Assembly (NCBI GenBank): GCA_000091205.1
Contig: AP006502.2
Strand: one strand, 5' to 3'
Origin: Cyanidioschyzon merolae
Lineage: Eukaryota
Length of the DNA: 64,000 bases
Shown: one piece after another, positions 133 through 47,823 of the stretch
Layout of the letters: each line of letters opens with the position of its first letter
Position numbering within the stretch: position 1 is the first letter of the stretch
Notes under the pieces: model-generated
Told to the model about the DNA's origin: nothing
What the model saw: only the letters and a program-made list of their open reading frames with translations
Database searches by the model: none
Program-made: the position numbers and the translations under genes

Positions 133-1396
133 CAAAGAGACACGCTACCAGCGTTTGGTGGTCATGGTGATGGTGGTAGTTATGGCGGCAGTGTCATATC
201 GATGCTGTCGCTCCAACGACTGCTGCTGTTCCAGGAGCACCGTGATACGGTGCTTCTCGACGAGATATGGTACGAACACCGCATCACCGACGGATGTGCG
301 CTGACGAGGTACTGCTTTTCCATGGGATCTAGCTCAAACGCCGTTTTCTCAACGGATGATGCTCGTCTCTGGTGGAATCGTCAACGCTGGAGCGATGACG
401 CTACTTGTGTTGCTCCATCGGTGATGCCCGGGAAGTTTTCGACGCTGACCTATCGATTCATTTGTGCACTGAGTGCTCGTTATTCGGCCAGGTGATGACT
501 GTATTAGCTGTATCTGATGGGGCAATGACCAACTCCTCTGTGAAGACACCGAGAGAATCCCACCCATTGAAGCTGATGGCCGTTGCGGCATTCGGGTTGC
601 CTCTGAGGCCGTGGACGAGTGCGTCATATCAGCGATTTGTCGCAGAACTTTCCGTTTGCAGAGACGGAGTGATTTATTGGATGGAGGCGGGCTTTAAAAG
701 GCATGAAGCGACGCGATGGAACTCGTTTCCACGATGATATACGCGATCCTGGCATCGTCGCTCGGTCTCTTTCGATGTAGCATGCGTTCACGACGGTTCC
801 GAGTTGCCGCCAGCTACAATGCAGTACGCAGCGGGTTTGGATGACGCTGCTTTCTGTGCTGGGCGCTCAGTCCGGCGCAAATCGTTTGCTGTGCAAAATC
901 AGTAATTTTATCGATTAGGGCGCTTTGGATGCGCGGGTTCTCGTTGTCGCATCAGCCATTCCAGCCGCCGATCATCCGGGTAGCCTCTAATCCCCGTATT
1001 CGATCCTGTAGAGACCCTGAATCGACAGCGATGCACCCACGGGGACACTAGTCCCCATCGAGACCGAGTCTTTCGTGCTGTAGGAGCGCCTGTGTACGAG
1101 TCATTGCCACGCGTTTCTGCATGCCGAACGATAATGCCCCTCATGGGCTCCGAACAAGAGCATCACGACGAATGGGTAGAGCGGTCATGATCAAGAAAAA
1201 TTCTGAGCGCGAGGCCTGCTCAGCAAGATAGCGAAGATACGCTGTACATCTGCGCAGCGTCGTTTCCTATCTCGCAGGCAGATGCCGCCATACCGAAGCA
1301 CTTTGCCTGGGCGAGAATAGGCATTTAACCTGTCGTAATGAGCGTTTGCTCTGGTGCCTTCCGACGACGTCATACCTACTGATTGCTCTGTAGCAT

Positions 1397-3829: not shown

Positions 3830-5378
3830 ATCATCAGAATTTTTCATATCCGTATCGTGTGCTTGGGCGAGTTGCAATACTCAAGTGTGGCAGCCAACAC
3901 GAACAGGAAATCGCTCTCCGGTACCGAATGGTCTCATGAGCTGCATCGTATTGTCTGTTGATGAGTTGATTGCATTGTCGTGCAGGGAACCTCAGGAGCG
4001 GCTATGGTGATCGGGAATCCCGTTTCAGGCTGGCACCGCTGGACCGAACAAGAATGCACCGTAATCCCTGGATACACAGAGGCGCACTGAACCCATCCAT
4101 GTGAAGCAGGCATGGTGTGAGGCTCCTTCGCAATAAATGGACGCCGCTTGCACCTTGTATGAGGTGCGAATTGTTTGTAGACAATTCGTCGGGAACGTGC
4201 TGATATTCAAGATATCGATGCTGGTGGGTAATTCCGGCAGCAGTGCGCAACTGCGCGCCGAGTCCTTCGAGTGTACTTGCATCCAGTATGGCTTCGCCGC
4301 ATGCCGGCCTCTAAGCCGTGCGAGCAGGGCTTACTCCTTTGCTTTTATCTGTGACAGCCAACACGAGAAGCATACTCGAGTTAGCGCCAACCGATCGTAC
4401 GGGTTCTGAATGTAACCGAGGCACCCAGCAGGCGTGTCGGAACTCTTGTGGATGCATATGCTGGACCGGCGTTCCAGAGCGAACGATTCGAGAAATGGGG
4501 CACTGTTTCGGACTTGTGGGCGCGAGGTCAAGGGCGGCGTAGGTGCGTTCGCAAACGCCGAAGTTGCACGATGCCCCGTTATCGAGGTTTTGTCGATACG
4601 ATTGGGGAGTAAACTCCTGGGTCGATTTTAGCATTCGGTGGCGTCTAGAACGTTCGTTTGGCCCGGATATCGATATGCACGAACTCTCCTGAACGAATGG
4701 CCGGGTCATGTTTAGACACACTCAGTAATATCGAATAATGCAACACCATTCTCGATTGGCAGTCGCCCAGGGATACCATTCCGACTACATAAATACGATG
4801 TTGCAGACTTGTTGTATTCCTGACCATACCATACTACTGAATTGCTCCAGGCGAGAATCAGATGCCGCCTCTCTAATGTCCTTGAATTCGTTTATCAAAG
4901 GTCGTCAGCGATTCAGGGCAATGCCCACGGCCTGTACGCAACGATCCGCTCCGGGGTCCGTTCGATGCAGAGCTCATGCGCGTTTCGCTAGCAGAGGCCA
5001 TCTCCGAACGTTGTTCGACAGACGCTCATATCTCGATCCATAAAGGGCCGTCACACGCTTCGACAGGTAAACGCACACAACTGCATGCCGCTCGCTCTCG
5101 TTGCTCGCTGCATCGGACGTTATCTCAGCGTACCGTGCAACATCTCGAGCGTCCGGCTCTGTTTCACGCTCTTCTCCTCTACCGGCATCAGCGCGCAACC
5201 GTGCTCTTGATTTCTGCATATTGTCCTGCATCCATCGATAAGCATCGGAAAGAATCGATTCCTTCGCTCGTTGCACGCTCTCGTAGATGCAGCAGGAATG
5301 CAGCCCGAGCGCGTTCCAGCGCCTCGAGCGGCAGTGCGCTGCCACCGAACAGCACGACGCATCATGCACTATCGGGTT

Positions 5379-5421
5379 GATGTTCATGTTCATGTTCATG
5401 TTCATGTTCATGTTCATGTTC
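5379..5421. repeat. (ATGTTC)n hexanucleotide microsatellite, ~7 units (3 units in duplicate copy at ~18008-18026)
   Basis: Direct reading: atgttcatgttcatgttcatgttc... Unit number differs between the two duplication copies. Confidence 0.9.
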
Positions 5422-6885
5422 AAGTCCATGTCCTTGATCAAGTCCTTGAGCGTGTCCACGTCCATGTCCATTTCATGGAAACCGTTGGCCAGTCTGCGCT
5501 TCTTGCCTCCGTGCAGCCGGAGCATCGGCGAGTCCGGTGCGGCTCCATCTAGTGCCTCCATAGATTGTCTGCATGAGCCATTTGGACGCTCATGTGCTCC
5601 GTGAATGCGGCGTTCAGAGAATACCTCAGACCGCTGGATTCGGCGCTCAGAGCGTCAACATGGGTCACGACGCTGTCCTTGCACTCGCTGGTAGACCGCT
5701 GGGCGCCCGCCATGTCGGGCTCCCGTTCATGCCCTTCCCTGCACAAGCTGCGCAGTTGCATTTGCTCGCCCTGAGGATCTCCGGATACATCCCCTCGATG
5801 TAGAGATACTGCATCTGAGATGACGGTTTCCAGCTGCGGATCCGGGTCCGCCGCAATGTTCGTCTCGTCGTCTACCCTGACAGGTTGAAAAAGCTGCTCG
5901 TCGGCTGACGCTGGCCTCGGTTTCATGGAGTCTGTGTTTGTGTGTGTGTGTGTGCGTATGTGTGCAGACGGACAGTCCGTCGGTGCATCGTCCCTGTGCA
6001 TTTCGTCTTGTTTCCTTCGTGTGACAGAGAAACCTTGAACGAGCCTCTGCTCTGCTCTGCTCTGCTCTGCTTGAGGCTGCTCGAGCGATACGTCGCTGCT
6101 CGAAGAGATACCAGACCCTCTTCGCTATCCGCTTCACTGGGATGCCCGGTCATGGTCTGGTTGCTATGCTCTACGTCTGTTTTCCTCCTTGAGAAGCACA
6201 CGGACTGGATGGGCACTGTTACTAAGACTCGCCTTCTCTGTGTATGTATCGGCGCTCTCTCGGACACGTTTTCGTTACCTTCTTGAACGCGAGCGTGTCC
6301 ACGCACTGAAACGTGCCCCTGCGCTCCCTCCTGTGCAAGAGACGCGGCCCAACACGGTAGTTCAGGGCTGGTGGAGGTATCGCAAGCGTCGTCGAAAAAC
6401 TCGAGTGTTACGGACGTGACTGACGCACCACTAGATCCGTGAGCGTCAGAGCGGCTTTTGCCAACAGAAAAGACGCTTTCGACTGGAATGGACCAACGGA
6501 GAGTAGACTGGCAGGAAGCGCAGCTCTACGCAGTCTCAGCTGCATACTCGGTGACTGCTTCTTGTTGTGACGGGAACCGACGTTTTCTAGCAGCAGGACA
6601 GAAGAGCTTGGGAACGAGGTTCCGTGAGCACTTCTTAGAAGATTGAGGTTTTTGAAGGATCCGGGCTGTTCAGCGATCTCGGGGCGACCAGACGTGTTAC
6701 CCGCCGCTAGCTAGGACTGTTGTTGCCGTCGCGCTCGCTTGTCTTGGCTGAACGAACTGCGAATCGCCCCTCTTTAACTACCCGTGCGCAAGTCTACGCG
6801 TTCTCACGAACAAAGTCGCATCGAGTGAGACATGCAGCAGTCTGTCCCACGGTAAGCGATCCCTGAACAATACAAAAGCAAAGCT

Positions 6886-6906
6886 GAGCTGAGCTGAGCT
6901 GTCCGA
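6886..6906. repeat. (GAGCT)n microsatellite (expanded to ~11 units at 19488-19546 in copy B); (GT)n at 5934-5960 and (GCTCT)n at 6040-6076 nearby
   Basis: Direct reading of gagctgagctgagctgagctg. Copy B carries a longer array with one variant unit (gagctaagctg). Confidence 0.85.
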
Positions 6907-7339
6907 CACAGGATACGTTCCGGTGGCATCGCGCTTTCTCCCGCGTCCATTGGTGGCCCTTCACCGCTCTTCGTATCATGGGTACGGAAGTTTCAGAAAC
7001 TGTGGCTTTGCCAGTAGAGCTTCATAGCGAACGCTTGGAGACGAATGGAATGACGAGACGACGGTCGTGGAGATCGAGGTCCATAGGTTGCACGTCGGGT
7101 GCACCATGTCCAGACCGAGGACTAGGCAGCGAATGGCCCGTGCATCTGCCCACCGAAGAATGCCTGAATACTACACCTAAGATCCTCTGTCGCATGCTAC
7201 CAGAGACATCATAAAGTCGTCCCGCAACGCTCTTCCAACATGCTGGATACAGTCCATTAGTTGAGTGCCTGCGAGAAAAACAGAGGACGACGATGAAAAC
7301 GGCGTGCTGGTACAGGAGCTCCAGAATGCACTGCTCTGT

Positions 7340-10300
7340 TTATAGGCTCTCGATAGATGCCAAGTACTGGTGTGGGGAGAGCACGCTTGTACCGCCAATT
7401 ACCACGTCAATCTGCAGATGTGTAGCGAGTCCTCGTATCTGCTCCACTTCAAGAGCGGTGACTCCACCAAGTACCACGAACAGGAAGCGATCGTTTCGGT
7501 AACGTTCAGCGGCTCGCTGGAGACGATCCACCAACGCTGCATGCACTCCAGCGTCCTCGGGCAATGTTTCAGTCGCATCTTGCTGCTGCTGCTGCAGTGC
7601 CTCTGTGCCGTCTAAGGCTTCACAAACAGTCGCTTGTGATCGCACGTTCCTTTGTGCACTAGATGGGGGACTTGACGGCGACAGCGCCTCTGCCAGCATG
7701 CCTGCTTCTTCAGCGATACGCAACCTGCTGCGACGTGCACTGCGTTTGACGTCGACATCTGGCGTCGCCCGGTCGACTTGCTGAACGACTCGTGGAGTCG
7801 TTTGCGTGTCGGCTGCCGTTCGCTGTTCGTCGCTTTGATTACATGTTGTCCCTGGACTGTGCATCATATGCGCGTCCTCAGAATGAATACCTTTGCGGGT
7901 GTTCTGGCTGGGCATGGCGTCCAGTTGCATACCGACAGCAGCATCGTGCGTCATATCATGTCCCTGGGTTGCAGGCGTCGTCGTCGTCGTCATCGTCGTC
8001 GTCGCAGCGAGCGGAGCTGTCACGTGAGGCTCGGGCGCTGGCGACGGCGCTCGCGGCTCCACGAGCAACGTAGACAAGAAGAGTTCCGCAGCCGGTGACC
8101 CCAGCGGCTCCTTGTGTTCATGGTCGGACGCAACAGCGCTGTCGTCGTGCCCTTCAGCGACTTCATGTCGTTGTTGAAGATCGAATGCGCCCATATACTG
8201 GAGCAAAATTTGGCTCGCCATCGTCTCCGGTAACAGTAGCGATCCAAGTGACTCGTGTACCAGCACTCGAGCTCGCCGTCTCCGTCGCACGCGGGCGGAG
8301 CGCGTTGCCCACTTGGCGGCACGAAGGCGTTGAAGAAACGCATTCGCCGTTCGTATCAGCGAGTCTTGCGTCTGCAGGTCCAGTCCCGGAATTTTCTGGA
8401 CCAGTTCCCTGACAAGATGTGGGTCCCGGCATCCAAGGAACACCAGCAGTAAGCGCAGCTTGTCGGAGAGCGCATACGTGTCCGCTTCGAGAACCTTTTC
8501 CACGGTACGGCGCATCGTAGCGGAACTGATTCGTGACCCTTGATCCTGCTTGATACCCATGACGATGCACCTTTCCAACGCCGATAAATAGAGTAGATTT
8601 CGTTGTTGCTGTTCTTGGAGACAACGCTCCAGGCTCTTTGCATGCCAGCGCAAAGCGGAAAGCAACTCCAACTGCGCCGGGTCCGCTGCTTGGAGGCTCT
8701 CAAGCGCTCGCTTCAGCGAGGCAAGATCCAGGTCGATACATTCCGCATGAGTCACGCGGTTATCTGAGTCAGGCTCGCTGGATGCGAGGAGCGGCTGCGC
8801 GAGCGCCTGCAGTTTCGCCACAGCGTCCGATAGCGTGTACTGTCGCAGCGCTCGCCAGACCGCATCGTGCTCGGAAGGCCACTGCGGTCGGGCGTTTCCC
8901 GCTGCATCATTCAGTTCCAGAAGCATGCCGCGGTAGGTGTTCACGTGTAGCAGAGGCGTAACGGGGTCCACGGCACGATCCATGAGCAGGAGGTGCAGGG
9001 CACCGCGCCCTGCCACCAAACCTGGACAGAACAGCGGCAAGAGATGCACCGCTGCATACGTCTGAGCCGCCCTGGCAATGCAGGTCGCTTGTTCACTAGC
9101 CGCAGGAGAGGTATGAATCTGAATCCAGGGGGCTTCATTCGCAAAGGTGCCTGCACCCATGCCGTGCAGTAGGGTGCCGATCTGGTGACCGAGTTCCTCC
9201 ATGAGCTGGAACCGCATGGCGCAGGTCTCGGGAGCATCTGCACCGTACAAGAGACCAAATACGTCTTCCCGATTCTCGATACTTACCACTTGTTCCTCGA
9301 TCGGGAAAAAGTCCACATGAATGGGTAGTAAGACGGTGCTTCCGTCAACGTCCGCCCAGGAAATGGCGTGGCGGCGGGGCAGCGGTGCGCTCGGCGAACG
9401 CGTCAACAAGAGCCGCACCGGCACTGGAGCGCTTCGCTTAGCCTCATAGCGCGCCACACTGGTCATCCAGTCGCCCGTTGGAGCCAGAATATAGATTGTT
9501 GGGAGCTCTAGTTCCCGATTTCCGCAACGAGGAAGCTGCTCCAGGAGACATATCCGTGCTGAAGGGAAGCATTCGGCCAAGTTTGGTCCCAGGGCATATT
9601 TCAGGAGCACTGCAGTGCGGGCGTCGAGAACAAGAAGCCAATCTCTTTGCCCAAAGTGCTCCACTTGATCGTGGACAAGGGCGACCAGGAGACGCTGCAC
9701 TCGCTGGACGATGCTGAAAGGTTTTTGAGAATCGTCTATCGACCCGAAGCTCGGCAAACTGAGCATCAAAGGCGACAGGCTGTCCATGGACAGGATCCCC
9801 CCCGGAATACCCCAGCGCGGCTCATTCGCTGCCTCAGACCCGAGACTCGTCGGGCTGAGCGTGCCCTTCTCCGCTGCATCAGCTGCTTGAAATCCGTAGG
9901 CAGCCCCGAAATGCGCTTTTTTCTCGAAGCCAGCTCGTCGCTGCCGTCGTCTGCGCAGAAGGCACCATACCAACAATACACCGAATACCAGAGCGAGTAC
10001 GATCAGCACCGCCACAATGGCAGCTACGGCACCTGTACTGATGCCTTGAGCGGGACCCGCGGTCACAGCGTTGGCCTCGTTTGGATCCTGGACATCAACC
10101 GCGAGCACGTTGTCCGCGCCACAAGATACGGGTCCGAGCGCCGTCAAGTTACTCAAATGGCCCCTGCATACAAAGCGATTCAACGCTGTTTGCCAAGCAT
10201 CTAAAGCACTTGCGCTGATGACGCCCGCATAAGTGGCGATCACTGATCCAGCACGCAGATCGACCAGCACCAGCGGCGGGTCCGACAGAAGCGCTTCGCG

Positions 10301-11371
10301 TATATCCGGATTTCGCAATAGCGCTTCCGTGATATTTTGACTCACGCCAGTGGTAAATTTGCTCAGCATTAATCCCGTAAAATTCAACGGGAAGACTACC
10401 CGACGCGATGATTCTCCCCGGAAGGCAGGGAGTGGCGCGATAGTTGCCTGAGCGCTCCGCACGCCGCTGGCGATCGGGAACGGTAGCGGTGTCGGCACCG
10501 AGTCGCTCCCAGCGCTTTTAGCCGTCACCAGCACATTCGCGTATCGAATACCGGGGCAACGGGCATTGTAGAGGGCCCAGGTACCGCTGGAGAACGTGTT
10601 GTCACTCGTCTCAACAGAGAGCTCTCCGTTAATGAACACTTGAAGGCGGGCGTGATCGCAGCGCACGTGCAGCTCGACAAAGTCTCCGAGCGGGTACGGC
10701 TGCGCGTGCGCCGCTGTCGCAATCGTGTTCCAGCTCCCGTTCGCGACAACCTGCAGCTGCTGAATAGCGCCGCTGGCACGAACTCCCGGCTCTTCCGTGT
10801 TACTCCACACGAAGCGGTAATAGTTATTCGAGTCCTGAATGCGAAACATGACTCCGGCCAGTCCGTTAACTGCGGCATTGATCGCAACATAGATATCGTA
10901 GTTGGTGAGGGTCTCAGAGCCGGCCCCGATGTACTGGAGAAACGTGCCTGCATAGGGGTCGGCGGCGCTATTTGGCGAGAAAATGTTCTTGGTCTGCTCG
11001 AGCACCGCACCGCTCTCGTAACGCATCCCGTTCGCATCCACGTCGGTTTCAATCCAGAAGGAGGGCGCCCCAATCGAGCCCTGGTCCACTGGCTTCCACA
11101 CGCTCGTGTCTATTGGACATATTGGCGCTGTGCAGGAAGAGAAGTCCGTTCCGAAAATGACACCAGACTCGCTCACTCGAAACTTGCTCCAGTCGGGTGA
11201 AGCGCCCCTGACTGATTCGGAAACGCCCAAAAGCGCCAGCACCAGAACAAGCGCGCAGAGCCAGCGGTACCGCCGGGGCCACGGACGCCAGCGCGCACCC
11301 GAGAGCAGCGCGGCAACCGATGCGAACATCCACCACGTCCTGTGACGACTCAGTATAAAACCTGTGCCCAA
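7340..11371 (-). CDS. Sec1/Munc18 (SM) family vesicle-fusion protein with an N-terminal signal peptide, ~400-aa ectodomain and a transmembrane segment in the same ORF
   Basis: 1343-aa uninterrupted ORF. The C-terminal ~800 aa carry SM-family hallmarks (LLVLDARTAVLLKYALG near the domain start; LLLMDRAVDPVTPLLHVNTYRGML matching the LLxxDRxxDxxTPLLHxxTYQ core; C-terminal VVIGGTSVLS ~ IIGGTT motif). The N-terminal part has a hydrophobic signal-like segment (LCALVLVLALLGVSESVRG) and a TM helix (AAIVAVLIVLALVFGVLLVWCLL followed by RRRRQRR). A low-complexity Thr-rich insertion lies inside the SM domain. Confidence 0.7.
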   Translation of the reverse strand: MGTGFILSRHRTWWMFASVAALLSGARWRPWPRRYRWLCALVLVLALLGVSESVRGASPDWSKFRVSESGVIFGTDFSSCTAPICPIDTSVWKPVDQGSIGAPSFWIETDVDANGMRYESGAVLEQTKNIFSPNSAADPYAGTFLQYIGAGSETLTNYDIYVAINAAVNGLAGVMFRIQDSNNYYRFVWSNTEEPGVRASGAIQQLQVVANGSWNTIATAAHAQPYPLGDFVELHVRCDHARLQVFINGELSVETSDNTFSSGTWALYNARCPGIRYANVLVTAKSAGSDSVPTPLPFPIASGVRSAQATIAPLPAFRGESSRRVVFPLNFTGLMLSKFTTGVSQNITEALLRNPDIREALLSDPPLVLVDLRAGSVIATYAGVISASALDAWQTALNRFVCRGHLSNLTALGPVSCGADNVLAVDVQDPNEANAVTAGPAQGISTGAVAAIVAVLIVLALVFGVLLVWCLLRRRRQRRAGFEKKAHFGAAYGFQAADAAEKGTLSPTSLGSEAANEPRWGIPGGILSMDSLSPLMLSLPSFGSIDDSQKPFSIVQRVQRLLVALVHDQVEHFGQRDWLLVLDARTAVLLKYALGPNLAECFPSARICLLEQLPRCGNRELELPTIYILAPTGDWMTSVARYEAKRSAPVPVRLLLTRSPSAPLPRRHAISWADVDGSTVLLPIHVDFFPIEEQVVSIENREDVFGLLYGADAPETCAMRFQLMEELGHQIGTLLHGMGAGTFANEAPWIQIHTSPAASEQATCIARAAQTYAAVHLLPLFCPGLVAGRGALHLLLMDRAVDPVTPLLHVNTYRGMLLELNDAAGNARPQWPSEHDAVWRALRQYTLSDAVAKLQALAQPLLASSEPDSDNRVTHAECIDLDLASLKRALESLQAADPAQLELLSALRWHAKSLERCLQEQQQRNLLYLSALERCIVMGIKQDQGSRISSATMRRTVEKVLEADTYALSDKLRLLLVFLGCRDPHLVRELVQKIPGLDLQTQDSLIRTANAFLQRLRAAKWATRSARVRRRRRARVLVHESLGSLLLPETMASQILLQYMGAFDLQQRHEVAEGHDDSAVASDHEHKEPLGSPAAELFLSTLLVEPRAPSPAPEPHVTAPLAATTTMTTTTTPATQGHDMTHDAAVGMQLDAMPSQNTRKGIHSEDAHMMHSPGTTCNQSDEQRTAADTQTTPRVVQQVDRATPDVDVKRSARRSRLRIAEEAGMLAEALSPSSPPSSAQRNVRSQATVCEALDGTEALQQQQQDATETLPEDAGVHAALVDRLQRAAERYRNDRFLFVVLGGVTALEVEQIRGLATHLQIDVVIGGTSVLSPHQYLASIESL

Positions 11372-13237
11372 CCCTGCGCGTAAAACTCAATGAAAACAAA
11401 GCGCGTGATACCTGGAAGCGCAAGGCGGATCGCAGAACAGAAATCTCTGTTCATTGTAGGAGAAATAGGCATTCGATCGATCCGAGTATGGACGCGTGGC
11501 CTGGGGAGCAAACAGCGCCGGCTGGTGGCGCCTCGAGGGCCGGTGGCGGCACGTGCCGCTTCCGCGCACAGGGCGGCGCTTTTGTTGTGGCCCGGACCTA
11601 GCGGGGAAGCCGACGGAGATGGTTCATATTTGTCTATTAATGAATAAGAATATGAAGCGGCAGCAGGGCAATCGAGGTCTCCGCGCTCTTGCGCGTACCC
11701 CGCTGGACAGGAAAATGCGTACGCGCGCGCGGCTCGCATCCGATGATCGACACCTGTGATCGATACACATGCGATACTGAACTGCTCGTGCTATCCCTGC
11801 GTTGTGACTTGTCGCAAATTGCAGCGTTAAACGGACAACCTAGAGATCAAAAGTGCATGCATAGGAGATTACGGGTGCATATATAGGTATACGATTTTTG
11901 ATCGATTTTGTTCGGAGTGGGTTCTTCGAAGCTTTTGCGCCTGGGATTCGTTACGTTCCCAGAAACAAGATGACTGGGGGCGGCGCCCACAAATAATGAT
12001 TGGGAAAATAACCAATGTCGCGATGCAGCGTATGCGTCCAAGTCTCCGCTATTCTTCTATCGTTACATGTATCATGTTCAAATCACGTATTCTTCGTGGT
12101 TTCGATCGCACTGTTCTGAAGCGAGTCGTGCACGCAGTAATGCACGTCGCCGGATTGGCCACGAAACCAGAGCTCAACGTCGACTCTCGAAGGCGTTTTT
12201 CACATCGAATCATTTGTCTCGTTCGAAACACAAATCCGCCTCTGTTTCGAGGCATCGACCAATCGGCATTCGCCTGGAGCATAATACCTGTCACGGGATA
12301 TGCTCGCAAGGGCCCCTGTCTCTTCTCTTTGCATTCAAAAAAGGGTACTGGACACGAGCTCCAGTTATCGCAACGATCACTTCCCGTGGACCATAAGCGG
12401 ATGGAAAACTCTCGATCTCTCCTCTAACCTGGATTCCGCTTCCGAAACGTGTTCCATCATGACCAAGATCGCGTTTCATAAATCCCGTCTCGAATGGAAC
12501 ACTGCGCGCTTGCGCTCGCGGAGGATACCCTATTTACTGCGTGAATCGCACAGAAAAAACATGTGATCATGCGATACGACGATGTGTGCGAAAATGCAGG
12601 ACGGTACCGAAAGAAGCCTTCCGTAGTGTCCAGGTACATGCGGCAATCGATGAAGCAAGCGTTCAAGCTGCACTAGCCGCCGATAAAAGAGAGGGCACTT
12701 GTTGCGATGGACATCTGGGACGCCTGACCGCTGCCAAGTGTCACTGCTGCGAGGGACGAACCGAGGTCGCGTTCGAAGAACGTGCGTAGATCACAACTTT
12801 TGCCGGTGCATGAATCGCGTGAACAACACCCAGAAGCAGCGAAATCGGCGACTTGGACGCTACGATCAATACCCCTTGACCGGCATTAACAGAGCTGAAC
12901 AGACAGGAGAGATCGACGTAATCTGAGCCTGAGACCATACGGAGGTAAGGCAGGCAGTCGGAGACGAATCCCTCAAAGACTTTTGTTCATGACTGTGGGA
13001 AGCATCCCAAACTTGAGAATGTACGCTCGAGTTAGACCAGTGGACCTGCACCTTTCGATTCTGATATCGCGAGATGCTCGGTCGAGCAAAGAAGCAGACG
13101 TCGACCGGGGGCTGGCGGGTACATCTATTCAGCCAATCCCAGACGCCTTCCAGCCTTTATTAGGCCGGCCGACTGCTAACGGTTTCAGTTTATCCGGGCA
13201 CACTTCGAACCTCAGAGGCAAACCCCACGAAGCTGGA

Positions 13238-13576
13238 TTACGTCAGGCCGTCGTGTCTCGTCTTCAGCACCACACAGCGTCTGATATTGATAGCAGCGTT
13301 GAAGCCCCGGGTCACGAACTCCATGCGTTTGTTGCCTCTGGTCGAACTCACAAGTGCAAGAATTGCTAGAACTCGTGCCCCATCAGAGCCACTACAGTCT
13401 CGACATTGTCCTGTCGGGCAAGCACCGTGTCCCGCACATCTCCGCTCTTCCTCGTCTTTTGCTTCTACATCACTTGCTCTTCTTCGCTCGATCGTCGGCG
13501 AGAAGAGGATTTTTCTGTTTCCTTTCCAGTACCCGGCGATCTCGGGCCCGCCAGGACCCCTGACTTGCACGTCCAT
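13238..13576 (-). pseudogene. Degenerate Fanzor/TnpB-like nuclease remnant (C-terminal zinc-finger and RuvC-III segment only)
   Basis: ORF ends ...CAGHGACPTGQCRDC..VLAILALVSSTRGNKRMEFVTRGFNAAINIRRCVVLKTRHD. Clearly homologous to the C-terminus of the intact Fanzor-like ORF at 43056-44669 ([38 protein letters not shown]). No RuvC-I or RuvC-II region precedes it; the upstream part is replaced by a minisatellite. Confidence 0.55.
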
Positions 13577-13782
13577 ATCCGCCCCTTGGGTTTCTTACTT
13601 GTCCAAACGAGCACATGTCGAAAACGTCCAGCATAAACCGCAAAAAAAAGCACTTGACGCAACGCACCTGGAGATGGAACGCAATTCAGATGAAAGTCCA
13701 GAACGCACGCTGCGGCACCGGATCGCCGCAAGATCGCAGGCGCGCAGCGTGCACAGACGGCGCCTTTGCCGCTGAGGGTAGC

Positions 13783-14010
13783 GTCCGTCACGAGAAGCGG
13801 CCTGTGCGCGTCTGTCACGAGAAGCGGCCTGTGCGCGTCTGTCACGAGAAGCGGCCTGTGCGCGTCTGTCACGAGAAGCGGCCTGTGCGCGTCTGTCACG
13901 AGAAGCGGCCTGTGCGCGTCTGTCACGAGAAGCGGCCTGTGCGCGTCTGTCACGAGAAGCGGCCTGTGCGCGTCTGTCACGAGAAGCGGCCTGTGCGCGT
14001 CTGTCACAGC
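13783..14010. repeat. 27-bp minisatellite (gtcacgagaagcggcctgtgcgcgtct), ~8 tandem copies
   Basis: Perfect period-27 repeats starting at 13787, 13814, ... 13976. They produce artefactual repetitive ORFs in three frames (13465-14025, 13615-14130, 13766-14116). Confidence 0.9.
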
Positions 14011-14075
14011 TGGGAACGGCTGCACAGCAGTGCTTCGCGCTCACTTGGCTGTTCCAGGAAAGCACATCTGGGGCT

Positions 14076-14366
14076 ATGTCGACGTCAAGGTTGTGTACAA
14101 GTTTCCGAGCGATTAACGGCCGGGGCTTAGGGACTCTCGTTCCACGGCGAGGGCTGCACCAGACAACAGCGAGAAACCGAGCGACGCACGGCGAACACGA
14201 CGAACACCACGATGTGTACGGGTACCTGCACGCTCCGCACATGTACGACTTGAGTCACGCAAGCAAGTGGAAGTACGGCATTGCGACGTTTACATTTGTT
14301 ACAACAGGGCTGGGATTGCCTTTCTTCATGGTATGGTACTCGCAGAAAAAAGCCGGCATATGGTAA
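14076..14366 (+). CDS. Small mitochondrial single-TM protein, cytochrome c oxidase subunit 7C/Cox8-like
   Basis: 96 aa. Arg-rich presequence-like N-terminus, then KWKYGIATFTFVTTGLGLPFFMVWYSQKK, aligning with the COX7C KW-x16-PF-x-V-x6-K transmembrane signature. Assignment made from memory of COX7C only. Confidence 0.4.
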   Translation: MSTSRLCTSFRAINGRGLGTLVPRRGLHQTTARNRATHGEHDEHHDVYGYLHAPHMYDLSHASKWKYGIATFTFVTTGLGLPFFMVWYSQKKAGIW

Positions 14367-14471
14367 GACGGTTTCGATCAAGGTATTGTTGCTGGGGCTG
14401 TTGGCTGCTTCTTGAGGTTGGCGTCTCGTGTCCAACTTGTAAACACTACTTGTTTCTGAGTAACCCACGTT

Positions 14472-17349: not shown

Positions 17350-20110
17350 ACTCAGTAATATCGAATAATGCAACACCATTCTCGATTGGCAGTCGCCCAG
17401 GGATACCATTCCGACTACATAAATACGATGTTGCAGACTTGTTGTATTCCTGACCATACCATACTACTGAATTGCTCCAGGCGAGAATCAGATGCCGCCT
17501 CTCTAATGTCCTTGAATTCGTTTATCAAAGGTCGTCAGCGATTCAGGGCAATGCCCACGGCCTGTACGCAACGATCCGCTCCGGGGTCCGTTCGATGCAG
17601 AGCTCATGCGCGTTTCGCTAGCAGAGGCCATCTCCGAACGTTGTTCGACAGACGCTCATATCTCGATCCATAAAGGGCCGTCACACGCTTCGACAGGTAA
17701 ACGCACACAACTGCATGCCGCTCGCTCTCGTTGCTCGCTGCATCGGACGTTATCTCAGCGTACCGTGCAACATCTCGAGCGTCCGGCTCTGTTTCACGCT
17801 CTTCTCCTCTACCGGCATCAGCGCGCAACCGTGCTCTTGATTTCTGCATATTGTCCTGCATCCATCGATAAGCATCGGAAAGAATCGATTCCTTCGCTCG
17901 TTGCACGCTCTCGTAGACGCAGCAGGAATGCAGCCCGAGCGCGTTCCAGCACCTCGAGCGGCAGTGCGCTGCCACCGAACAGCACGACGCATCATGCACT
18001 ATCGGGTTCATGTTCATGTTCATGTTCAAGTCCATGTCCTTGATCAAGTCCTTGAGCGTGTCCACGTCCATGTCCATTTCATGGAAACCGTTGGCCAGTC
18101 TGCGCTTCTTGCCTCCGTGCAGCCGGAGCATCGGCGAGTCCGGTGCGGCTCCATCTAGTGCCTCCATAGATTGTCTGCATGAGCCATTTGGACGCTCATG
18201 TGCTCCGTGAATGCGGCGTTCAGAGAATACCTCAGACCGCTGGATTCAGCGCTCAGAGCGTCAACATGGGTCACGACGCTGTCCTTGCACTCGCTGGTAG
18301 ACCGCTGGGCGCCCGCCATGTCGGGCTCCCGTTCATGCCCTTCCCTGCACAAGCTGCGCAGTTGCATTTGCTCGCCCTGAGGATCTCCGGATACATCCCC
18401 TCGATGTAGAGATACTGCATCTGAGATGACGGTTTCCAGCTGCGGATCCGGGTCCGCCGCAATGTCCGTCTCATCGTCTACCCTGACAGGTTCAAAAAGC
18501 TGCTCGTCGGCTGACGCTGGCCTCGGTTTCATGGAGTCTGTATTTGTGTGTGTGTGCGTGTGCGTATGTGTGCAGACGGACAGTCCGTCGGTGCATCGTC
18601 CCTGTGCATTTCGTCTTGTTTCCTTCGTGTGACAGAGAAACCTTGAACGAGCCTCTGCTCTGCTCTGCTCTGCTCTGCTTGAGGCTGCTCGAGCGATACG
18701 TCGCTGCTCGAAGAGATACCAGACCCTCTTCGCTATCCGCTTCACTTGGATGCCCGGTCATGGTCTGGTTGCTATGCTCTACGTCTGTTTTCCTCCTTGA
18801 GAAGCACACGGACTGGATGGGCACTGTTACTAAGACTCGCCTTCTCTGTGTATGTATCGACGCTCTCTCGGACACGTTTTCGTTACCTTCTTGAACGCGA
18901 GCGTGTCCACGCACTGAAACGTGCCCCTGCGCTCCCTCCTGTGCAAGAGACGCGGCCCAACACGGTAGTTCAGGGCTGGTGGAGGTATCGCAAGCGTCGT
19001 CGAAAAACTCGAGTGTTACGGACGTGACTGACGCACCGCTAGATCCGTGAGCGTCAGAGCGGCTTTTGACAACAGAAAAGACGCTTTCGACTGGAATGGA
19101 CCAAGGGAGAGTAGACTGGCAGGAAGCGCAGCTCTACGCAGTCTCAGCTGCATACTCGGTGACTGCTTCTTGTTGTGACGGGAACCGACGTTTTCTAGCA
19201 GCAGGACAGAAGAGCTTGGGAACGAGGTTCCATGAGCACTTCTCAGAAGATTGAGGTTTTTGAAGGATCCGGGCTGTTCAGCGATCTCGGGGCGACCAGA
19301 CGTGTTACCCGCCGCTAGCTAGGACTGTTGTTGCCGTCGCGCTCGCTTGTCTTGGCTGAACGAACTGCGAATCGCCCCTCTTTAACTACCCGTGCGCAAG
19401 TCTACGCGTTCTCACGAACAAAGTCGCATCGAGTGAGACATGCAGCAGTCTGTCCCACGGTAAGCGATCCCTGCACAATACAAATGCAAAGCTGAGCTGA
19501 GCTGAGCTGAGCTGAGCTGAGCTGAGCTAAGCTGAGCTGAGCTGTCCGACACAGGATACGTTCCGGTGGCATCGCGCTTTCTCCCGTGTCCATTGGTGGC
19601 CCTTCACCGCTCTTCGTATCATGGGTACGGAAGTTTCAGAAACTGTGGCTTCGACAGTAAAGCTTCATAGCGAACGCTTGGAGACGAATGGAACGACGAG
19701 ACGACGGTCGTGGAGATCGAGGTCCATAGGTTGCACGTCGGGTGCACCATGTCCAGACCGAGGACTAGGCAGCGAATGGCCCGTGCATCTGCCCACCGAA
19801 GAATGCCTGAATACTACACCTAAGATCCTCTGTCGCATGCTACCAGAGACATCACAAAGTCGTCCCGCAACGCTCTTCCAACATGCTGGATACAGTCCAT
19901 TAGTTGAGTGCCTGCGAGAAAAACAGAGGACGACGATGAAAACGGCGTGCTGGTACAGGAGCTCCAGAATGCACTGCTCTGTTTATAGGCTCTCGATAGA
20001 TGCCAAGTACTGGTGTGGGGCGAGCACGCTTGTACCGCCAATTACCACGTCAATCTGCAGATGTGTAGCGAGTCCTCGTATCAGCTCCACTTCAAGAGCG
20101 GTGACTCCAC
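17350..20110. repeat. Segmental duplication copy B (direct repeat of ~4725-7468)
   Basis: Same ORF translations as copy A, with microsatellite length differences: (ATGTTC) 3 vs 7 units, (GAGCT) ~11 vs 4 units, (GT)n variants. Ends inside a truncated copy of the Sec1 3' end. Confidence 0.85.
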
Positions 20111-20111
20111 C
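19983..20111 (-). pseudogene. Truncated duplicate of the Sec1/Munc18 gene 3' end (last ~42 codons) carried by duplication copy B
   Basis: ORF 19983-20231 ends WGGVTALEVELIRGLATHLQIDVVIGGTSVLAPHQYLASIESL. This is near-identical to the C-terminus of the 7340-11371 Sec1 ORF (...GGVTALEVEQIRGLATHLQIDVVIGGTSVLSPHQYLASIESL). The upstream part of that ORF is unrelated. Confidence 0.65.
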
Positions 20112-20490: not shown

Positions 20491-23400
20491 GTGCGCTGCA
20501 TGAACACGTCGCCAAGGTTACGAGGTCAGCGTCGATCGGACTATGCTGCGTATGCAGGTCGTCGACGACAGCCTGCATCGTCGTTGTCGTGCGCGGTTGG
20601 CGCTGAACTGAAAGCCGCTGCTCATGCAGAGCCTGTCTCTCCAGGTAACGAGATACCGCGCACCACTGGCGAGGGTGAACGTACCGGTACGGCCGTGCAA
20701 GGTCCGACAACTTCTCGGATTGATGCACTTCTAACGAAGCAGGCGCTTTCGGACGAGTTACTGATGTCAAAGCTTAGCGACCGTCTGCGGGAACTGGCAC
20801 GGAGAGCTGCAGCCTCTCGTGACGAGCACCTTCGTCAGGCGCAGCTCTTGCAAACGCGAGCTGAACGTGAACAGAAACGAAAGCTAGTGCGCAGCCACGG
20901 TGATGTGAGGCCCCTGAAACGAGACGCAGCTGGTTCGAGCGTGCTGCACACAACAGCACCACGGGGAACCGGCGAGCAGGCAAGCCCGCCTCGCTCCACG
21001 TTCCGGGACGCTGGCTCCATGGACTGGAAGTCGAGCGCGGAGGAGCCAGCCCGACTGACTCTAGACGAGCAGGTTTTGCAACATTTAACAAAAGGTCATG
21101 AATCGGGAGGAACCTCCACGTCTGCGGCTTTAGAGAAGCGCTGTCAGGCGTCCATCGAGGCCCTCGATACCACTGTTCTGGGTTTTTCTGATGCTGATGC
21201 TGCGTCGCAGCGCCTAGCGGAGGACCGCATACTGCGTGAAGCCACCGAAATCCAACAGCGCAACCTGGAGCTTGCGAAAGCGCGCCTGCCGAAGCAACCG
21301 GAACCGCCGCGCTCGAAGACACACCACGACTATCTCTGTGAGGCGATGATCTGGCTAGCCACTGATTATCGAGAGCGCTTCAAGTGGCACGCTGCTTTTC
21401 GAGCACGACTCGCTCGCGCTATCCACAGATTTCATGAAGAACGGAAGCAGCGGGACGCACGTGACTCCCAGGCACGAGAGGTCGCGCGTATACGACGAGC
21501 TCGCCTGTTGAGTCGGCACGTTCAAAAGTTCTGGGAGTCACTCTTCCATATGATGATATGGGAACAGCAGGCACAGGACGAGCGCCTTGCAAAGCGCAAA
21601 CGACAACGGGCTTTGGATTCCCTTGTTCACCAGACTGAAGACTACGTCAAGGTCCTGGCAGAAGAACTAGCGACTTGTGACTCGGAACAGATGGTTGTGG
21701 ATGGAGAGCCATATTCTACCGCGGAACTTGCGACAGGAAGGGAATCGGATCGGGCATCGCAAACGCAGCTCCCGGAGATAACCGCAGATACCGCAGCGAA
21801 TGGAACGATACGCGAGTCGGATACGCAGTCTCTGATGCCGCGCGCTACCAACGAAGTGCACTTGTCGACGAGCCGAGCACGAAGGCCACTTCCTGGTTGC
21901 TTGATGAGCAGCGCGGACGCATCAGTTGATGATGTTGGTACTGGCGGTTACGGAACGCAGCGACAAATTGGATCGATGCCAGGGACTGCGGATTCGGTCT
22001 ACTCCAGTGCGCAGCGACTGGGAGACGCCTCGCCCGAAGATCGTGGTGATGGTGATGGCGGTACAGCACTGCTACCAACGAAACCGGAAGTAGCTGCGAA
22101 CATGTCCGAAAGGTTGCCAAATACATCGCTGGGAGCAGCCGCTGCACCCGATGTTGAAGAGCATTCGGGAAACGCAACCCAGACCAGCTGTGCTGCACTG
22201 TCCACGAAAGAGGCACTTGAGCGGCCGGCATCGTTCCGCTCCGTGGACGACGCTTTGCGTATTCTCTTTCGAGGCCGCTTGCGCCCCTATCAACACGCCG
22301 GCCTACAATGGCTCATTGCCTTGAACGAGAAGGGTCTCAATGGTATGCTGGCAGACGACATGGGCCTGGGCAAGACCATCCAGACAATAGCGCTGTTGGC
22401 TTGGCTGGCAACTGCAAAACAGGACTGGGGTCCGCATCTGATCGTGGTACCCACCTCTGTGGTCATGAATTGGAACATTGAATTCAAAAAGTTCGCCCCA
22501 GGCCTCAAGGTGCTTTGTTATTTCGGGACGCCCACCGAACGAGCTGCCAAGCGCCGCGGCTGGACCAAACCCAATGCTTTCCACGTTTGTGTCACGTCTT
22601 ACCACATGGTGGTGCAGGACGCCACCGTCTTTCGTCGACAGCAATGGAGCTATCTCGTGCTCGATGAAGCGCAACACATCAAGAACTTTCAGAGCCAAAA
22701 ATGGCAGACATTGCTCACCTTCCATTCGCGGCATCGTTTACTGCTGACCGGAACGCCGCTGCAGAACTCGCTGATAGAATTGTGGTCGCTGTTACATTTC
22801 CTCATGCCAAATGTTTTCCAAAGCCATAGCGAATTCCGGGAGTGGTTTCAGGAACCTATCGAGACGCTCATTCAAGCCGATGCAAGCGTCCAGGAGAGCA
22901 TGGTTGAACGTCTGCACCGCGTTATTCGTCCCTTTGTGCTTCGACGCCTGAAGCGCGACGTGGAGCGTGAGCTGCCCCCGAAAACCGAGGAAATTGTCTG
23001 GTGTTCACTAAGCAAACGGCAACGAGAGCTCTACGATGACTTTATGAGTCGAGCAGCTACGCGGGAGAAGCTACTCAGCGGAAATTACCTGTCTGTGATG
23101 AATGTGCTCATCCAGCTGCGCAAGGTTTGTAACCATCCGGACTTGTTTGCAGGGCGACCCATCGACGAGCCCTACGCAAGTCAACGACCGCTGACGATCT
23201 TCATTCCGCACATCATACGAGCAGAAGCAGCGTCTGAGACGGCGCAGCGCCGGGCACCCCGCCTCGTCGATGAATCCATGTCTCGCGAGGACGCTGCTCG
23301 GATACGAGCCCTTACCGCCGCCGCGCGAATGCTCGCAGAGACTTCAGCGTGTCCGACGACATGCTCCGATTCGCAGGCCATATCGCGGGCATCGTTTGCG

Positions 23401-47749: not shown

Positions 47750-47823
47750 TATCGGCGGCGCGACTCGAACGCGCGATCTTGTGCGTGTGAAGCACACGTC
47801 ATAACCAACTAGACCACGCCGAC
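47750..47823 (-). tRNA. tRNA-Val (anticodon CAC)
   Basis: Minus-strand sequence folds by hand into a cloverleaf: GTCGGCG TG GTCT AGTTGGTTA TGAC G TGTGC TTCACAC GCACA AGATC GCGCG TTCGAGT CGCGC CGCCGAT A. 7-bp acceptor stem with a G1:U72 wobble; D-loop AGTTGGTTA; anticodon loop TTCACAC with U33 and A37 (anticodon CAC); perfect 5-bp T-stem with TTCGAGT loop; discriminator A. Closely resembles eukaryotic tRNA-Val. Confidence 0.75.

Follow-up and report, generated by a model that had tools for sequence, protein, structure and literature searches.

[quoted passage not shown] The gene lies on the minus strand of the stretch of DNA that we analysed (64,000 nucleotides, hereafter the window). While its structure is well supported, we infer its function: CMT347C is probably, if far from certainly, a type-I membrane SM protein by which SNARE-mediated secretion is coupled, in the diploid phase, to the wall or matrix outside the cell.

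The minus-strand reading frame 7340..11371 runs for 1343 codons without a stop, so that, as the initial annotation had stated, nothing interrupts the passage from the N-terminal region to the SM domain. Since the other two frames of this interval hold 34 and 38 stops, its openness is far beyond chance. Its listed TTG start comes from the bacterial table; eukaryotic translation begins at the ATG at 11329, codon 15 of the TTG frame, whose numbering (ATG = aa 15) is used for all parts of CMT347C below. The 1329-aa product is identical end to end to XP_005539339.1 (CMT347C) of C. merolae 10D, annotated as a 'hypothetical protein', and full-length orthologues measure 1306-1318 aa. The parts of the gene are as follows.

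7340..11329, minus strand: complete CMT347C coding sequence, 1329 codons plus the stop at 7340-7342 (ORF list, protein identity, orthologue lengths)
11204..11329, minus strand: predicted cleavable signal peptide, aa 15-56, MFASV...LCALVLVLALLGVSESVRG (translation, hydropathy, SignalP 6 on an orthologue)
10520..11161, minus strand: ConA-like beta-sandwich of the DUF1080 / 3-keto-disaccharide-hydrolase / CBM66-like type, aa 71-284, motif GVMFRIQDSNNYYRFVWSN (Pfam, profile search, AF2/Foldseek)
10091..10408, minus strand: SEA-like juxtamembrane alpha/beta module and Cys-containing stalk, aa 322-427
9956..10024, minus strand: single transmembrane helix, aa 450-472, 23 residues (translation, Kyte-Doolittle)
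9719..9955, minus strand: cytosolic stop-transfer RRRRQRR and 79-aa linker, aa 473-551 (charge, length, dN/dS, conserved residues)
7343..9718, minus strand: complete SM domain, aa 552-1343 (Pfam, PDB profile scores, dN/dS)
7547..8176, minus strand: fast-evolving low-complexity insert of ~210 aa in the SM domain, aa 1066-1275 (identity, length variation, HMMER alignment)

The topology signals agree with the initial annotation, which had recognised a hydrophobic leader, N-glycosylation-like sites, an ectodomain of about 400 aa and a 23-residue membrane segment followed by RRRRQRR. The leader has an Arg-rich n-region, the h-region LCALVLVLALLGV and the c-region SESVRG/AS; in five family members hydropathy peaks at 1.8-2.2 near the N-terminus. 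According to the supplement of PMC13353863, SignalP 6 returns SP(Sec/SPI) for the Cyanidium orthologue, and Phobius counts the signal peptide of the Cyanidiococcus orthologue as a second TM. The ectodomain, of ~390 aa, carries the sequons NGS, NFT, NIT and NLT, and five of its Cys positions are kept in at least four of six proteins. The membrane helix, AAIVAVLIVLALVFGVLLVWCLL, has a 19-residue Kyte-Doolittle mean of 3.31, with a matching peak of 2.7-3.3 across all family members, and RRRRQRR (9935-9955) directly adjoins its C-terminal end. In six proteins the net charge is 0 or -1 before the helix and +4 to +9 after it, and the density of N-X-S/T sequons is 2.4-8 times higher on its N-terminal side. 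The polybasic stop-transfer stretch fixes the orientation, placing the SM domain in the cytosol.

The initial annotation left two options, an SM protein tethered to the membrane or two neighbouring genes that share a frame by accident, and comparison with orthologues favours the first. The fusion is uninterrupted in six proteins of 23-59% identity, from Cyanidioschyzon, Cyanidiococcus (KAK4529375.1), Cyanidium caldarium (KAK4534560.1) and an uncultured relative, together with the far more distant members P0043 and P0069, which come from metagenome and read-archive assemblies (23% identity). P0069 is probably a paralogue from the same alga as P0003, because the two come from the same metagenome sample and have similar GC (0.54 versus 0.53). 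From the N-terminus, they share a signal peptide, a ConA-like lectin/CBM domain, a SEA-like module bearing an invariant G-S-V, one TM, a basic stretch, a linker of 63-86 aa and a full Sec1 domain. Between lineages synonymous sites have reached saturation and the unused frames hold 34-45 stops, yet no lineage has a stop in the fused frame; from stop densities, we estimate a chance of about 1e-7 that the 79-codon spacer would keep its frame and remain free of stops in five additional lineages. The linker evolves as coding sequence, with a dN/dS of 0.40-0.52 (dS saturated), faster than the flanking domains, and its steady length and conserved motif, FxAADxAEKGxxSPxS, suggest that it is a tether under constraint and not a spacer that could be dispensed with.

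These data support one gene and strongly disfavour two independent genes, one for a lectin-like protein that is secreted or membrane-bound and one for a soluble SM protein, that share a frame by chance with no intervening stop, a reading to which we give very little credence. It can draw on the internal methionines at ILSMDSLSPLM (aa 526-536), where the initial annotation had pointed out an internal Met and which precede the SM domain by 16 and 23 residues, and on an older Cyanidiococcus annotation with two proteins, KAF6005292 and KAF6005293. However, the linker of the Cyanidium orthologue contains no Met; as the first lies 138 residues into the SM domain, a downstream gene of its own could not supply the whole domain in that lineage, and the upstream gene would run on into the SM domain anyway. 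The Cyanidiococcus split, the only one among the orthologues, looks like a frameshift artefact within the TM, its second model starting at MEELGHQ, deep in the SM domain. The RNA-seq and proteome tables of PMC13353863 treat the orthologues as a single SM gene with signal peptide/TM. A chimeric join in assembly or annotation might be suspected because the last 126 nt of the coding sequence lie within a 2.75-kb repeat, the second copy of which is 12.6 kb away, but the repeat touches only the extreme C-terminus, which aligns with all orthologues. Moreover, the finished 10D genome contains the protein, as do contigs of 122-142 kb, and independent metagenome assemblies supply 31 members of its cluster; gene order around the orthologue locus is that of the window, and other genera carry the same neighbours. 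Independent assemblies and conserved neighbours thus refute this explanation for practical purposes, and we reject it.

The SM domain is complete. CMT347C scores 113.6 bits against Pfam Sec1 (PF00995; cut-off 30.7), the model is covered from 2 to 575 of 575 in orthologues and paralogues, and the LLxxDRxxDxxTPLLH core and IGGT tail described in the initial annotation are found as LLLMDRAVDPVTPLLH (aa 794-809) and as VVIGGTS close to the C-terminus. As to which SM clade it belongs, a question that the initial annotation had raised, the family profile scores 202 bits against Munc18-2, 180 against Munc18-1 and 171 against squid Sec1, compared with 70 for Sly1, 65 for Vps45 and 52 for Vps33; these score differences, rather than a tree, place the domain with the exocytic Sec1/Munc18 clade. 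Known exocytic members are soluble, cytosolic proteins of ~600-700 aa without signal peptide or TM. With these proteins (Munc18-1/2/3 = STXBP1-3, squid Sec1, Monosiga Unc18, yeast Sec1p and plant SEC1/KEULE; 141-202 bits) CMT347C has in common a complete Sec1 domain, in which the family keeps the DRxxDPxTPLxH core and the domain-3a segment, both aligning with Munc18-2, and the C-terminal GG..E....IGGT. Unlike them, it begins with a further ~540 residues that comprise signal peptide, ectodomain, TM and linker, and it has the 210-aa insert and, in its orthologues, diploid-restricted expression. The insert, of variable length and 11-26% amino acid identity among orthologues, occupies the place of a variable loop at Munc18-2 residues 472-514 (HMMER alignment to 4cca_A).

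The ectodomain is the most conserved part of the family (dN/dS ~0.08-0.10). Pfam PF06439 matches CMT347C with E 1.8e-5 and 25.3 bits, slightly below the 26.8 cut-off, and the Cyanidiococcus orthologue with 28.7 bits, above it; a profile search recovered bacterial DUF1080 proteins at E 2.3e-30. The AF2 model has a block-mean pLDDT of ~65-93 over this domain, which Foldseek matched best to CBM66 4b1m (2.5e-8), the thrombospondin C-terminal lectin-like domain, galectins and GH16. A beta-sandwich fold is common to CMT347C, DUF1080/PF06439 proteins and ConA-like CBMs, and the motif GVMFRxxDxxNYYRFxW is common to the family and bacterial DUF1080 repeat proteins. These closest relatives are large multi-repeat surface proteins, whereas CMT347C has one copy fused to a eukaryotic trafficking domain; because of this relationship, the predicted lectin-like domain may have been acquired from bacteria.

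The SEA-like module has no Pfam SEA match and no PDB sequence match. Like the SEA domains of MUC1, MUC16 and the matriptase/TMPRSS family, it is an extracellular juxtamembrane alpha/beta-sandwich; the cytosolic partner domains are unrelated. SEA domains self-cleave at the beta2-beta3 turn (G/SVVV, G/SVIA), and it is in this turn that the family places its invariant R-x-G375-S376-V-x-A-x-Y, a G-S-V-(I)-A motif at the self-cleavage position. By analogy, we infer that CMT347C could be cleaved there as well.

Two other readings accept the fusion and differ in what the SM domain does. CMT347C could serve mainly at the wall or matrix, as a receptor, adhesin or enzyme, its SM-derived domain having given up SNARE regulation and been recruited as a scaffold or sorting module in the cytosol. 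We regard this as unlikely, though deserving of attention: the SM domain is divergent in this subgroup (Pfam E 2e-32, versus 1e-113 for an ordinary SM protein) and contains a 210-aa disordered insert, conservation peaks in the ectodomain, and PF06439 relatives include 3-keto-glycoside hydratases and lyases, with a fold that also matches GH16 glucanases. Against it, the SM domain is under purifying selection along its whole length (dN/dS ~0.14), relatives cover the Sec1 model end to end with core and domain-3a segment kept, and P0043, a less divergent family member, aligns with Munc18-1 over its full length (E 3e-35). Somewhat less probable still is that the fusion is made but the active SM protein is soluble, through an internal transcription or translation start or linker proteolysis, the fusion serving mainly co-expression or delivery. 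To our knowledge, every characterised SM protein acts as a soluble or peripheral protein; the linker evolves faster than the domains, and five of six proteins have a linker Met. These Mets, however, are not aligned between species and are absent in Cyanidium, and linker length and motif are conserved. In C. merolae, Cyanidiococcus and the uncultured relative, where Mets lie 11-38 residues upstream of the SM domain, an extra soluble isoform may be made.

The reading that we prefer, a membrane-anchored SM protein for wall secretion, is consistent with when the gene is used. In the supplementary tables of PMC13353863 (2026), the orthologues are entered as SM genes with signal peptide/TM; the passages of its text covered here contain no discussion of the fused layout. 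According to that supplement, the Cyanidiococcus orthologue mRNA reaches ~120 TPM in 2n versus ~2 in n cells, with protein detected '2n only', and the Cyanidium orthologue mRNA reaches ~115 versus ~0.1 TPM (log2FC 10.7). Expression is thus almost exclusive to the cell-walled diploid phase, for mRNA in two genera and protein in one. The same source counts 10 SM genes per genome, 4-6 of them diploid-biased, and suggests that diploid SM proteins work with SYP1 to build the nascent wall. C. merolae 10D itself is a wall-less haploid.

In the walled diploid, a CMT347C-type protein would be placed in the plasma membrane or secretory carriers, with its ConA-like and SEA-like domains outside the cell or in the lumen and, beyond the ~80-residue linker, its SM domain at the cytosolic face. 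Tethered in this way, the SM domain would act as chaperone and template for the SNARE complex of a plasma-membrane, SYP1-type syntaxin while the ectodomain would bind wall or matrix glycans, and secretion of wall material would be concentrated or held at sites of wall building. A covalently anchored SM domain could also take over from recruitment by a tethering complex, because the lineage largely lacks the exocyst: Sec8, Sec10 and Sec15 are scored absent in C. merolae, which has only TRAPPI and a minimal COG (Koumandou 2007). A Munc18c fragment stimulates fusion once artificially anchored on the t-SNARE membrane (PMC9547204).

Two further known systems offer analogies only. In HOPS/CORVET, Vps33 is likewise an SM protein that is not left to diffuse to the membrane but is placed there by a stable link to larger targeting machinery; its link in HOPS is non-covalent and peripheral, whereas CMT347C carries its SM domain, of the Sec1 and not the Vps33 clade, within an integral membrane polypeptide. 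Wall and matrix receptors (plant malectin-like/CrRLK1L and WAK kinases, yeast Wsc1/Mid2) also have a type-I layout, in which one TM separates a glycan-binding-type domain facing outward from an effector in the cytosol, and share expression tied to the presence of a wall; their effector is a kinase or GEF adaptor with no sequence relationship to CMT347C, in which it is a SNARE chaperone.

We find that CMT347C is one gene, which very probably encodes a membrane-tethered Sec1/Munc18 (SM) protein. The window has a G+C content of ~56% and long open reading frames (ORFs) on both strands, including a minus-strand ORF at 7340..11371 that runs for 1343 codons without a stop; the remaining two frames of that interval contain 34 and 38 stops. 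The ORF is listed from a TTG because the ORF tool uses the bacterial table, and its first ATG lies at 11329. Translation from this ATG yields 1329 residues that match, residue for residue, XP_005539339.1 / BAM83303.1 of Cyanidioschyzon merolae 10D, named 'hypothetical protein CYME_CMT347C' in the database and without a mention in the main text of the papers searched. The hydrophobic leader, the N-glycosylation-like sites (N-X-S/T sequons), the transmembrane (TM) segment followed by RRRRQRR, the internal methionines, the LLLMDRAVDPVTPLLH core and the IGGT tail claimed in the initial annotation are all seen in this sequence. Its Pfam score for Sec1 (PF00995) is 113.6 bits, where the cut-off is 30.7, and it also has a borderline match to the 3-keto-disaccharide hydrolase / DUF1080 family at aa 154-267. 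A better name, replacing 'hypothetical protein', would be transmembrane Sec1/Munc18-family protein. The features of CMT347C, with residues numbered from the TTG (ORF aa), are:

11204-11329, minus strand: signal-like leader (ORF aa 15-56)
10520-11161, minus strand: ConA-like beta-sandwich (ORF aa about 71-284)
ORF aa about 285-321, minus strand: Pro-rich spacer between the ConA-like and SEA-like modules
10091-10408, minus strand: SEA-like module and Cys stalk (ORF aa 322-427)
9956-10024, minus strand: TM helix (ORF aa 450-472)
9719-9955, minus strand: basic stretch and linker between TM and SM domain (ORF aa 473-551)
7343-9718, minus strand: SM domain (ORF aa 552-1343)
7547-8176, minus strand: low-complexity insert inside the SM domain (ORF aa 1066-1275)

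Comparison with orthologues, a check proposed in the initial annotation, returned full-length fused proteins in several lineages: KAK4529375.1 of Cyanidiococcus yangmingshanensis (1318 aa, 53% identical across the entire alignment), P0003 of an uncultured relative, encoded on a metagenome contig of 135 kb (1306 aa, 53%) and KAK4534560.1 of Cyanidium caldarium (1214 aa, 35%). Two more distant proteins, P0043 and P0069, came from a profile search run exhaustively over 1.84 billion representatives; each is 23% identical, and its match extends without a break over both halves. P0043 (1084 aa) lies on a 5.4-kb contig on which its true N-terminus was not recovered, and P0069 (1228 aa; L004/L005/L006 5001-8687) has the same domain order as CMT347C. 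P0069 is probably a paralogue of P0003 within the same alga, since the two come from a shared metagenome sample and have the same G+C (0.54 and 0.53) but different neighbours, those of P0069 being 6PF2K, GOST_TM and membralin; membrane-anchored SM proteins would therefore form a small family. A metagenome scan yielded just two further loci, both C. merolae-like.

This conserved fusion, together with a linker that looks coding, the absence of methionine from the Cyanidium linker and a shared gene order, supports a membrane-tethered SM protein, one of the two options originally entertained. The other, two adjacent genes accidentally in frame, finds its closest parallel in an older Cyanidiococcus assembly, where the orthologue is annotated as two models, KAF6005293 (477 aa) and KAF6005292 (601 aa) (P0019/P0020). 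We regard that split as an artefact: KAF6005293 diverges from the family sequence inside the TM in a frameshift-like manner and KAF6005292 begins with MEELGHQ, midway through the SM domain, so that such split models in related genomes should be merged. The linker, 63-86 residues long across the family, retains an FxAADxAEKGxxSPxS motif. Synonymous substitutions have reached saturation among the three most closely related species (pS 0.53-0.85), and non-synonymous change remains low: the lectin-like domain has a dN/dS of about 0.08-0.10, the SM domain one of 0.14 and the linker, which behaves as coding sequence, one of 0.40-0.52. The other frames have about 0.027 stops per codon, a density at which we estimate that an unconstrained 79-codon spacer would be open and in frame with a probability of about 0.04 per lineage; by our own reckoning, chance would leave it open in five further lineages with a probability of about 1e-7. 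In Cyanidium, moreover, the linker has zero methionines and the earliest one lies 138 residues into the SM domain, and a separate SM gene is therefore not possible there. With the fusion kept across lineages, we reject the two-gene reading and consider it very improbable. The gene order at the orthologue locus is that of the window (methyltransferase, HEAT protein, CMT347C, DNA polymerase delta subunit 4, eIF6, SNF2/HSA), and an artefact such as an assembly chimera is also rejected, its probability being negligible. A soluble isoform produced in addition to the fused protein could draw on the internal methionines of CMT347C, a route that the Cyanidium linker lacks, and we think it quite unlikely.

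SM proteins work in the cytosol and, to our knowledge, all characterised members are soluble or peripheral cytosolic proteins without a signal peptide or TM. In contrast, CMT347C has a strong TM, a signal-like segment, a positive-inside charge distribution and a sequon-rich ectodomain (the part N-terminal of the TM). In all six family members the TM peaks at 2.7-3.3 on the Kyte-Doolittle scale (3.3 in CMT347C), the net charge is +4 to +9 in the 15 residues after the TM and 0 or -1 before it, and N-X-S/T sequons are 2.4-8 times denser N-terminal of the TM than C-terminal. Five Cys positions of the ectodomain recur in four or more of the six proteins. Signal-peptide and TM predictors, likewise proposed as a check, are available for two orthologues in the supplement of Hirooka et al. 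2026 (Plant Cell, PMC13353863), where the Cyanidium protein has a Sec/SPI signal peptide by SignalP 6 and one TM by Phobius, and the Cyanidiococcus protein two TMs and no signal peptide by Phobius. The SM domain is predicted to be cytosolic under either outcome, in a type-I single-pass, N-out/C-in topology.

Scores place the SM domain of this family with the exocytic Sec1/Munc18 group, answering the question of clade raised initially, and single sequences and profile agree in order. The six-member profile matched Munc18-2 in the PDB at 202 bits, followed by Munc18-1 (180), squid Sec1 (171), Monosiga Unc18 (143) and Munc18c (141), as against 70 bits for Sly1, 65 for Vps45 and 52 for Vps33. Among single sequences, P0043 reached 1.6e-38 against Munc18-2, 1.4e-35 against squid Sec1 and 3e-35 against Munc18-1 (residues 13-604), compared with 1e-11 for Vps45 and 3e-8 for Sly1; the SM part of CMT347C scored 1.7e-12 and about 1e-8 against Munc18-2 and Munc18-1, and 3e-3 against Vps45, on the C-terminal 75 residues only. 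Since these scores exceed those for Sly1, Vps45 and Vps33, we reject membership of those clades. The domain is complete: the Sec1 model was covered over positions 2-575 or 3-574 of 575 in the Cyanidiococcus, uncultured-relative and Cyanidium proteins, P0043 and P0069, and the sequence alignment to Munc18-2 and Munc18-1 spans residues 13-604, the low-complexity insert falling at Munc18-2 residues 472-514. At the sequence level, this alignment is in keeping with a putative arch-shaped SM fold of three domains (1, 2 and 3a/3b). Koumandou et al. 2007 (PMC1810245) found the SM proteins of C. merolae divergent, yet assignable to all four clades.

The membrane-distal part of the ectodomain is a lectin-like domain. 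Against the PF06439 gathering threshold of 26.8 bits, the Cyanidiococcus orthologue scores above it (28.7), and CMT347C (25.3), the uncultured relative (23.1) and Cyanidium (18.8) score below. An AlphaFold2 model built from 14 sequences has block-mean pLDDT values of about 65-93, and Foldseek matched it best to CBM66 (2.5e-8, TM-score 0.68-0.78 on the target) and further to the lectin-like C-terminal domain of thrombospondin, galectins and GH16 glucanases; as modelled, the domain is a beta-sandwich with a jelly-roll fold. A three-orthologue profile matched DUF1080 proteins of bacteria, such as those of a Phycisphaerales MAG, at E 2.3e-30, in a search that left the fused proteins themselves unlisted. 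Among P0023-P0034 and P0039-P0185, the ectodomain comes closest to DUF1080 proteins that are large and multi-repeat, and those named by source are all bacterial; among the best 150 matches the only ones recognised as clearly eukaryotic are the fused family and one ordinary SM protein. The lectin-like domain may thus be bacterial in origin, acquired by horizontal transfer, which we treat as a lead because the exhaustive search was dominated by large proteins with 2-13 matched stretches each that share a GVMFRxxDxxNYYRFxW motif.

Between this domain and the membrane lies a module that resembles SEA domains. SEA domains are extracellular and juxtamembrane, and carry a G|SVVV or G|SVIA self-cleavage site in the beta2-beta3 turn. 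The module of CMT347C has the same self-cleavage-type G|S-V/I-V/I motif in the same place: R-x-G-S-V-x-A-x-Y is invariant in all six proteins (G375-S376-V-I-A in CMT347C, about 75 residues N-terminal of the TM) and falls in the turn that joins strand 2 (56-62 in the model) to strand 3 (67-75). The AlphaFold2 model from the six-sequence alignment (pLDDT 88.4, pTM 0.82) runs strand, helix, strand, turn, strand, helix, and a SEA fold is defined as an alpha/beta-sandwich with the order b-a-b-b-a-b. In none of the six members did the module match a Pfam family at E values of up to 10, a profile search against the PDB gave no SEA match, and the Foldseek top 50 held generic ferredoxin-like matches and no SEA domain; we therefore call the module SEA-like rather than a SEA domain. 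Speculatively, SEA-type cleavage would yield a two-chain receptor.

Published data connect the family to one phase of the life cycle. C. merolae 10D is a wall-less haploid, and a cell-walled diploid phase occurs in Cyanidioschyzon, Cyanidiococcus and Cyanidium (PMC13353863). Tables of the same study establish diploid-specific expression for the orthologues: the Cyanidiococcus gene, classed as 'SEC' with 2 TM, is at about 120 TPM in diploids versus about 2 in haploids, its protein being marked '2n only', and the Cyanidium gene, listed with a signal peptide and 1 TM, is at about 115 TPM versus about 0.1 (log2FC 10.7). The study reports 10 SM genes in each of these three small genomes and 8 in Galdieria, 4-6 being diploid-biased. 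In Galdieria partita the supplement lists two adjacent 'Protein transport protein sec1' genes, one with a signal peptide and 1 TM, diploid-biased, and the other with 2 TM. The authors suggest that construction of the nascent wall may involve diploid SM proteins acting together with a SYP1 syntaxin specific to diploids, and the existence of this SYP1 paralogue provides a candidate syntaxin partner. CMT347C was already known as a database 'hypothetical protein' and as a flagged SM gene in the PMC13353863 supplement; the arrangement of signal peptide, ectodomain and TM is not discussed in the main-text passages of that article consulted here, and the layout of the family and its implications seem to be previously undescribed. 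Literature phrase searches for natural membrane-anchored SM proteins gave engineered constructs only.

SM proteins are universal and essential SNARE partners, and we know of descriptions of them solely as soluble proteins that are brought to membranes by syntaxins or tethering complexes. A naturally occurring SM protein with a covalent membrane anchor, conserved across lineages and fused to an extracellular domain of glycan-binding type, would be new. We propose that in walled diploids CMT347C would be found either in the plasma membrane or in secretory carriers; that its SM domain, held inside by a tether of ~80 residues, might chaperone a SYP1 SNARE complex; and that its ectodomain could bind wall or matrix glycans and so localise or stabilise secretion sites. 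This coupling of SNARE chaperoning to the wall or matrix is a tentative model, to which we give somewhat less than even weight. It is plausible because C. merolae lacks most tethering complexes, with the exocyst subunits Sec8, Sec10 and Sec15 scored absent (Koumandou 2007, PMC1810245), and because anchoring to the t-SNARE membrane suffices for a Munc18c fragment to promote fusion in vitro (PMC9547204). A protein that functions chiefly as a receptor or an enzyme and uses its SM-derived domain as a scaffold would suit the hydrolase-family affinity of the ectodomain, and sits less easily with the nearly full coverage of the Sec1 model; we judge it unlikely. Going beyond the coupling model, the Cyanidiophyceae family could combine landmark and SNARE chaperone, with an ectodomain that reads the wall or matrix, a self-cleaving SEA-like module that responds to force and an SM domain that licenses local exocytosis. 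This is a bold and rather unlikely extension; if true, it would replace exocyst-type targeting in a lineage that lost the exocyst and provide direct outside-in control of membrane fusion. More generally, an anchored SM protein would test how far SM function needs cycling on and off the membrane, and suggests that the wall is directly and physically coupled to the fusion machinery. Since expression of the orthologues is confined to the cell-walled diploid phase, itself a recent discovery, the idea is directly testable, in a host alga that is genetically tractable and has a minimal trafficking system.

The surroundings of CMT347C hold several further features. A direct repeat of 2.75 kb (98% identity; 4720-7468 and 17350-20111, about 12.6 kb apart) flanks the segment that runs from CMT347C to eIF6. 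Its right edge falls within CMT347C, and the duplication thereby takes in the final 42 codons of the gene, its stop and about 2.6 kb of downstream sequence. The second copy accordingly holds a 42-codon relic of the SM C-terminus with 2 aa changes (19986-20111, minus strand), which has no ORF leading into it and lies about 380 nt before the SNF2/HSA ORF. Other genes of the window include:

20491-26046, plus strand: SNF2/HSA chromatin remodeller, 1851 aa
27754-29199, minus strand: RabGAP-TBC protein, another trafficking gene
47749-47823, minus strand: tRNA-Val(CAC), single

The interval that separates CMT347C from the DNA polymerase delta subunit gene contains, at 13781-14007, 8.4 copies of a 27-nt unit (GCGTCTGTCACGAGAAGCGGCCTGTGC) repeated in tandem with 99% matches, and several frames are open across the repeat. 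The 2026 tables of PMC13353863 place CMX218C, a small gene with one TM, between the same two genes, which corresponds to window positions of about 11372-14400, between CMT347C and CMT350C; its orthologues are listed there at about 200-800 TPM.
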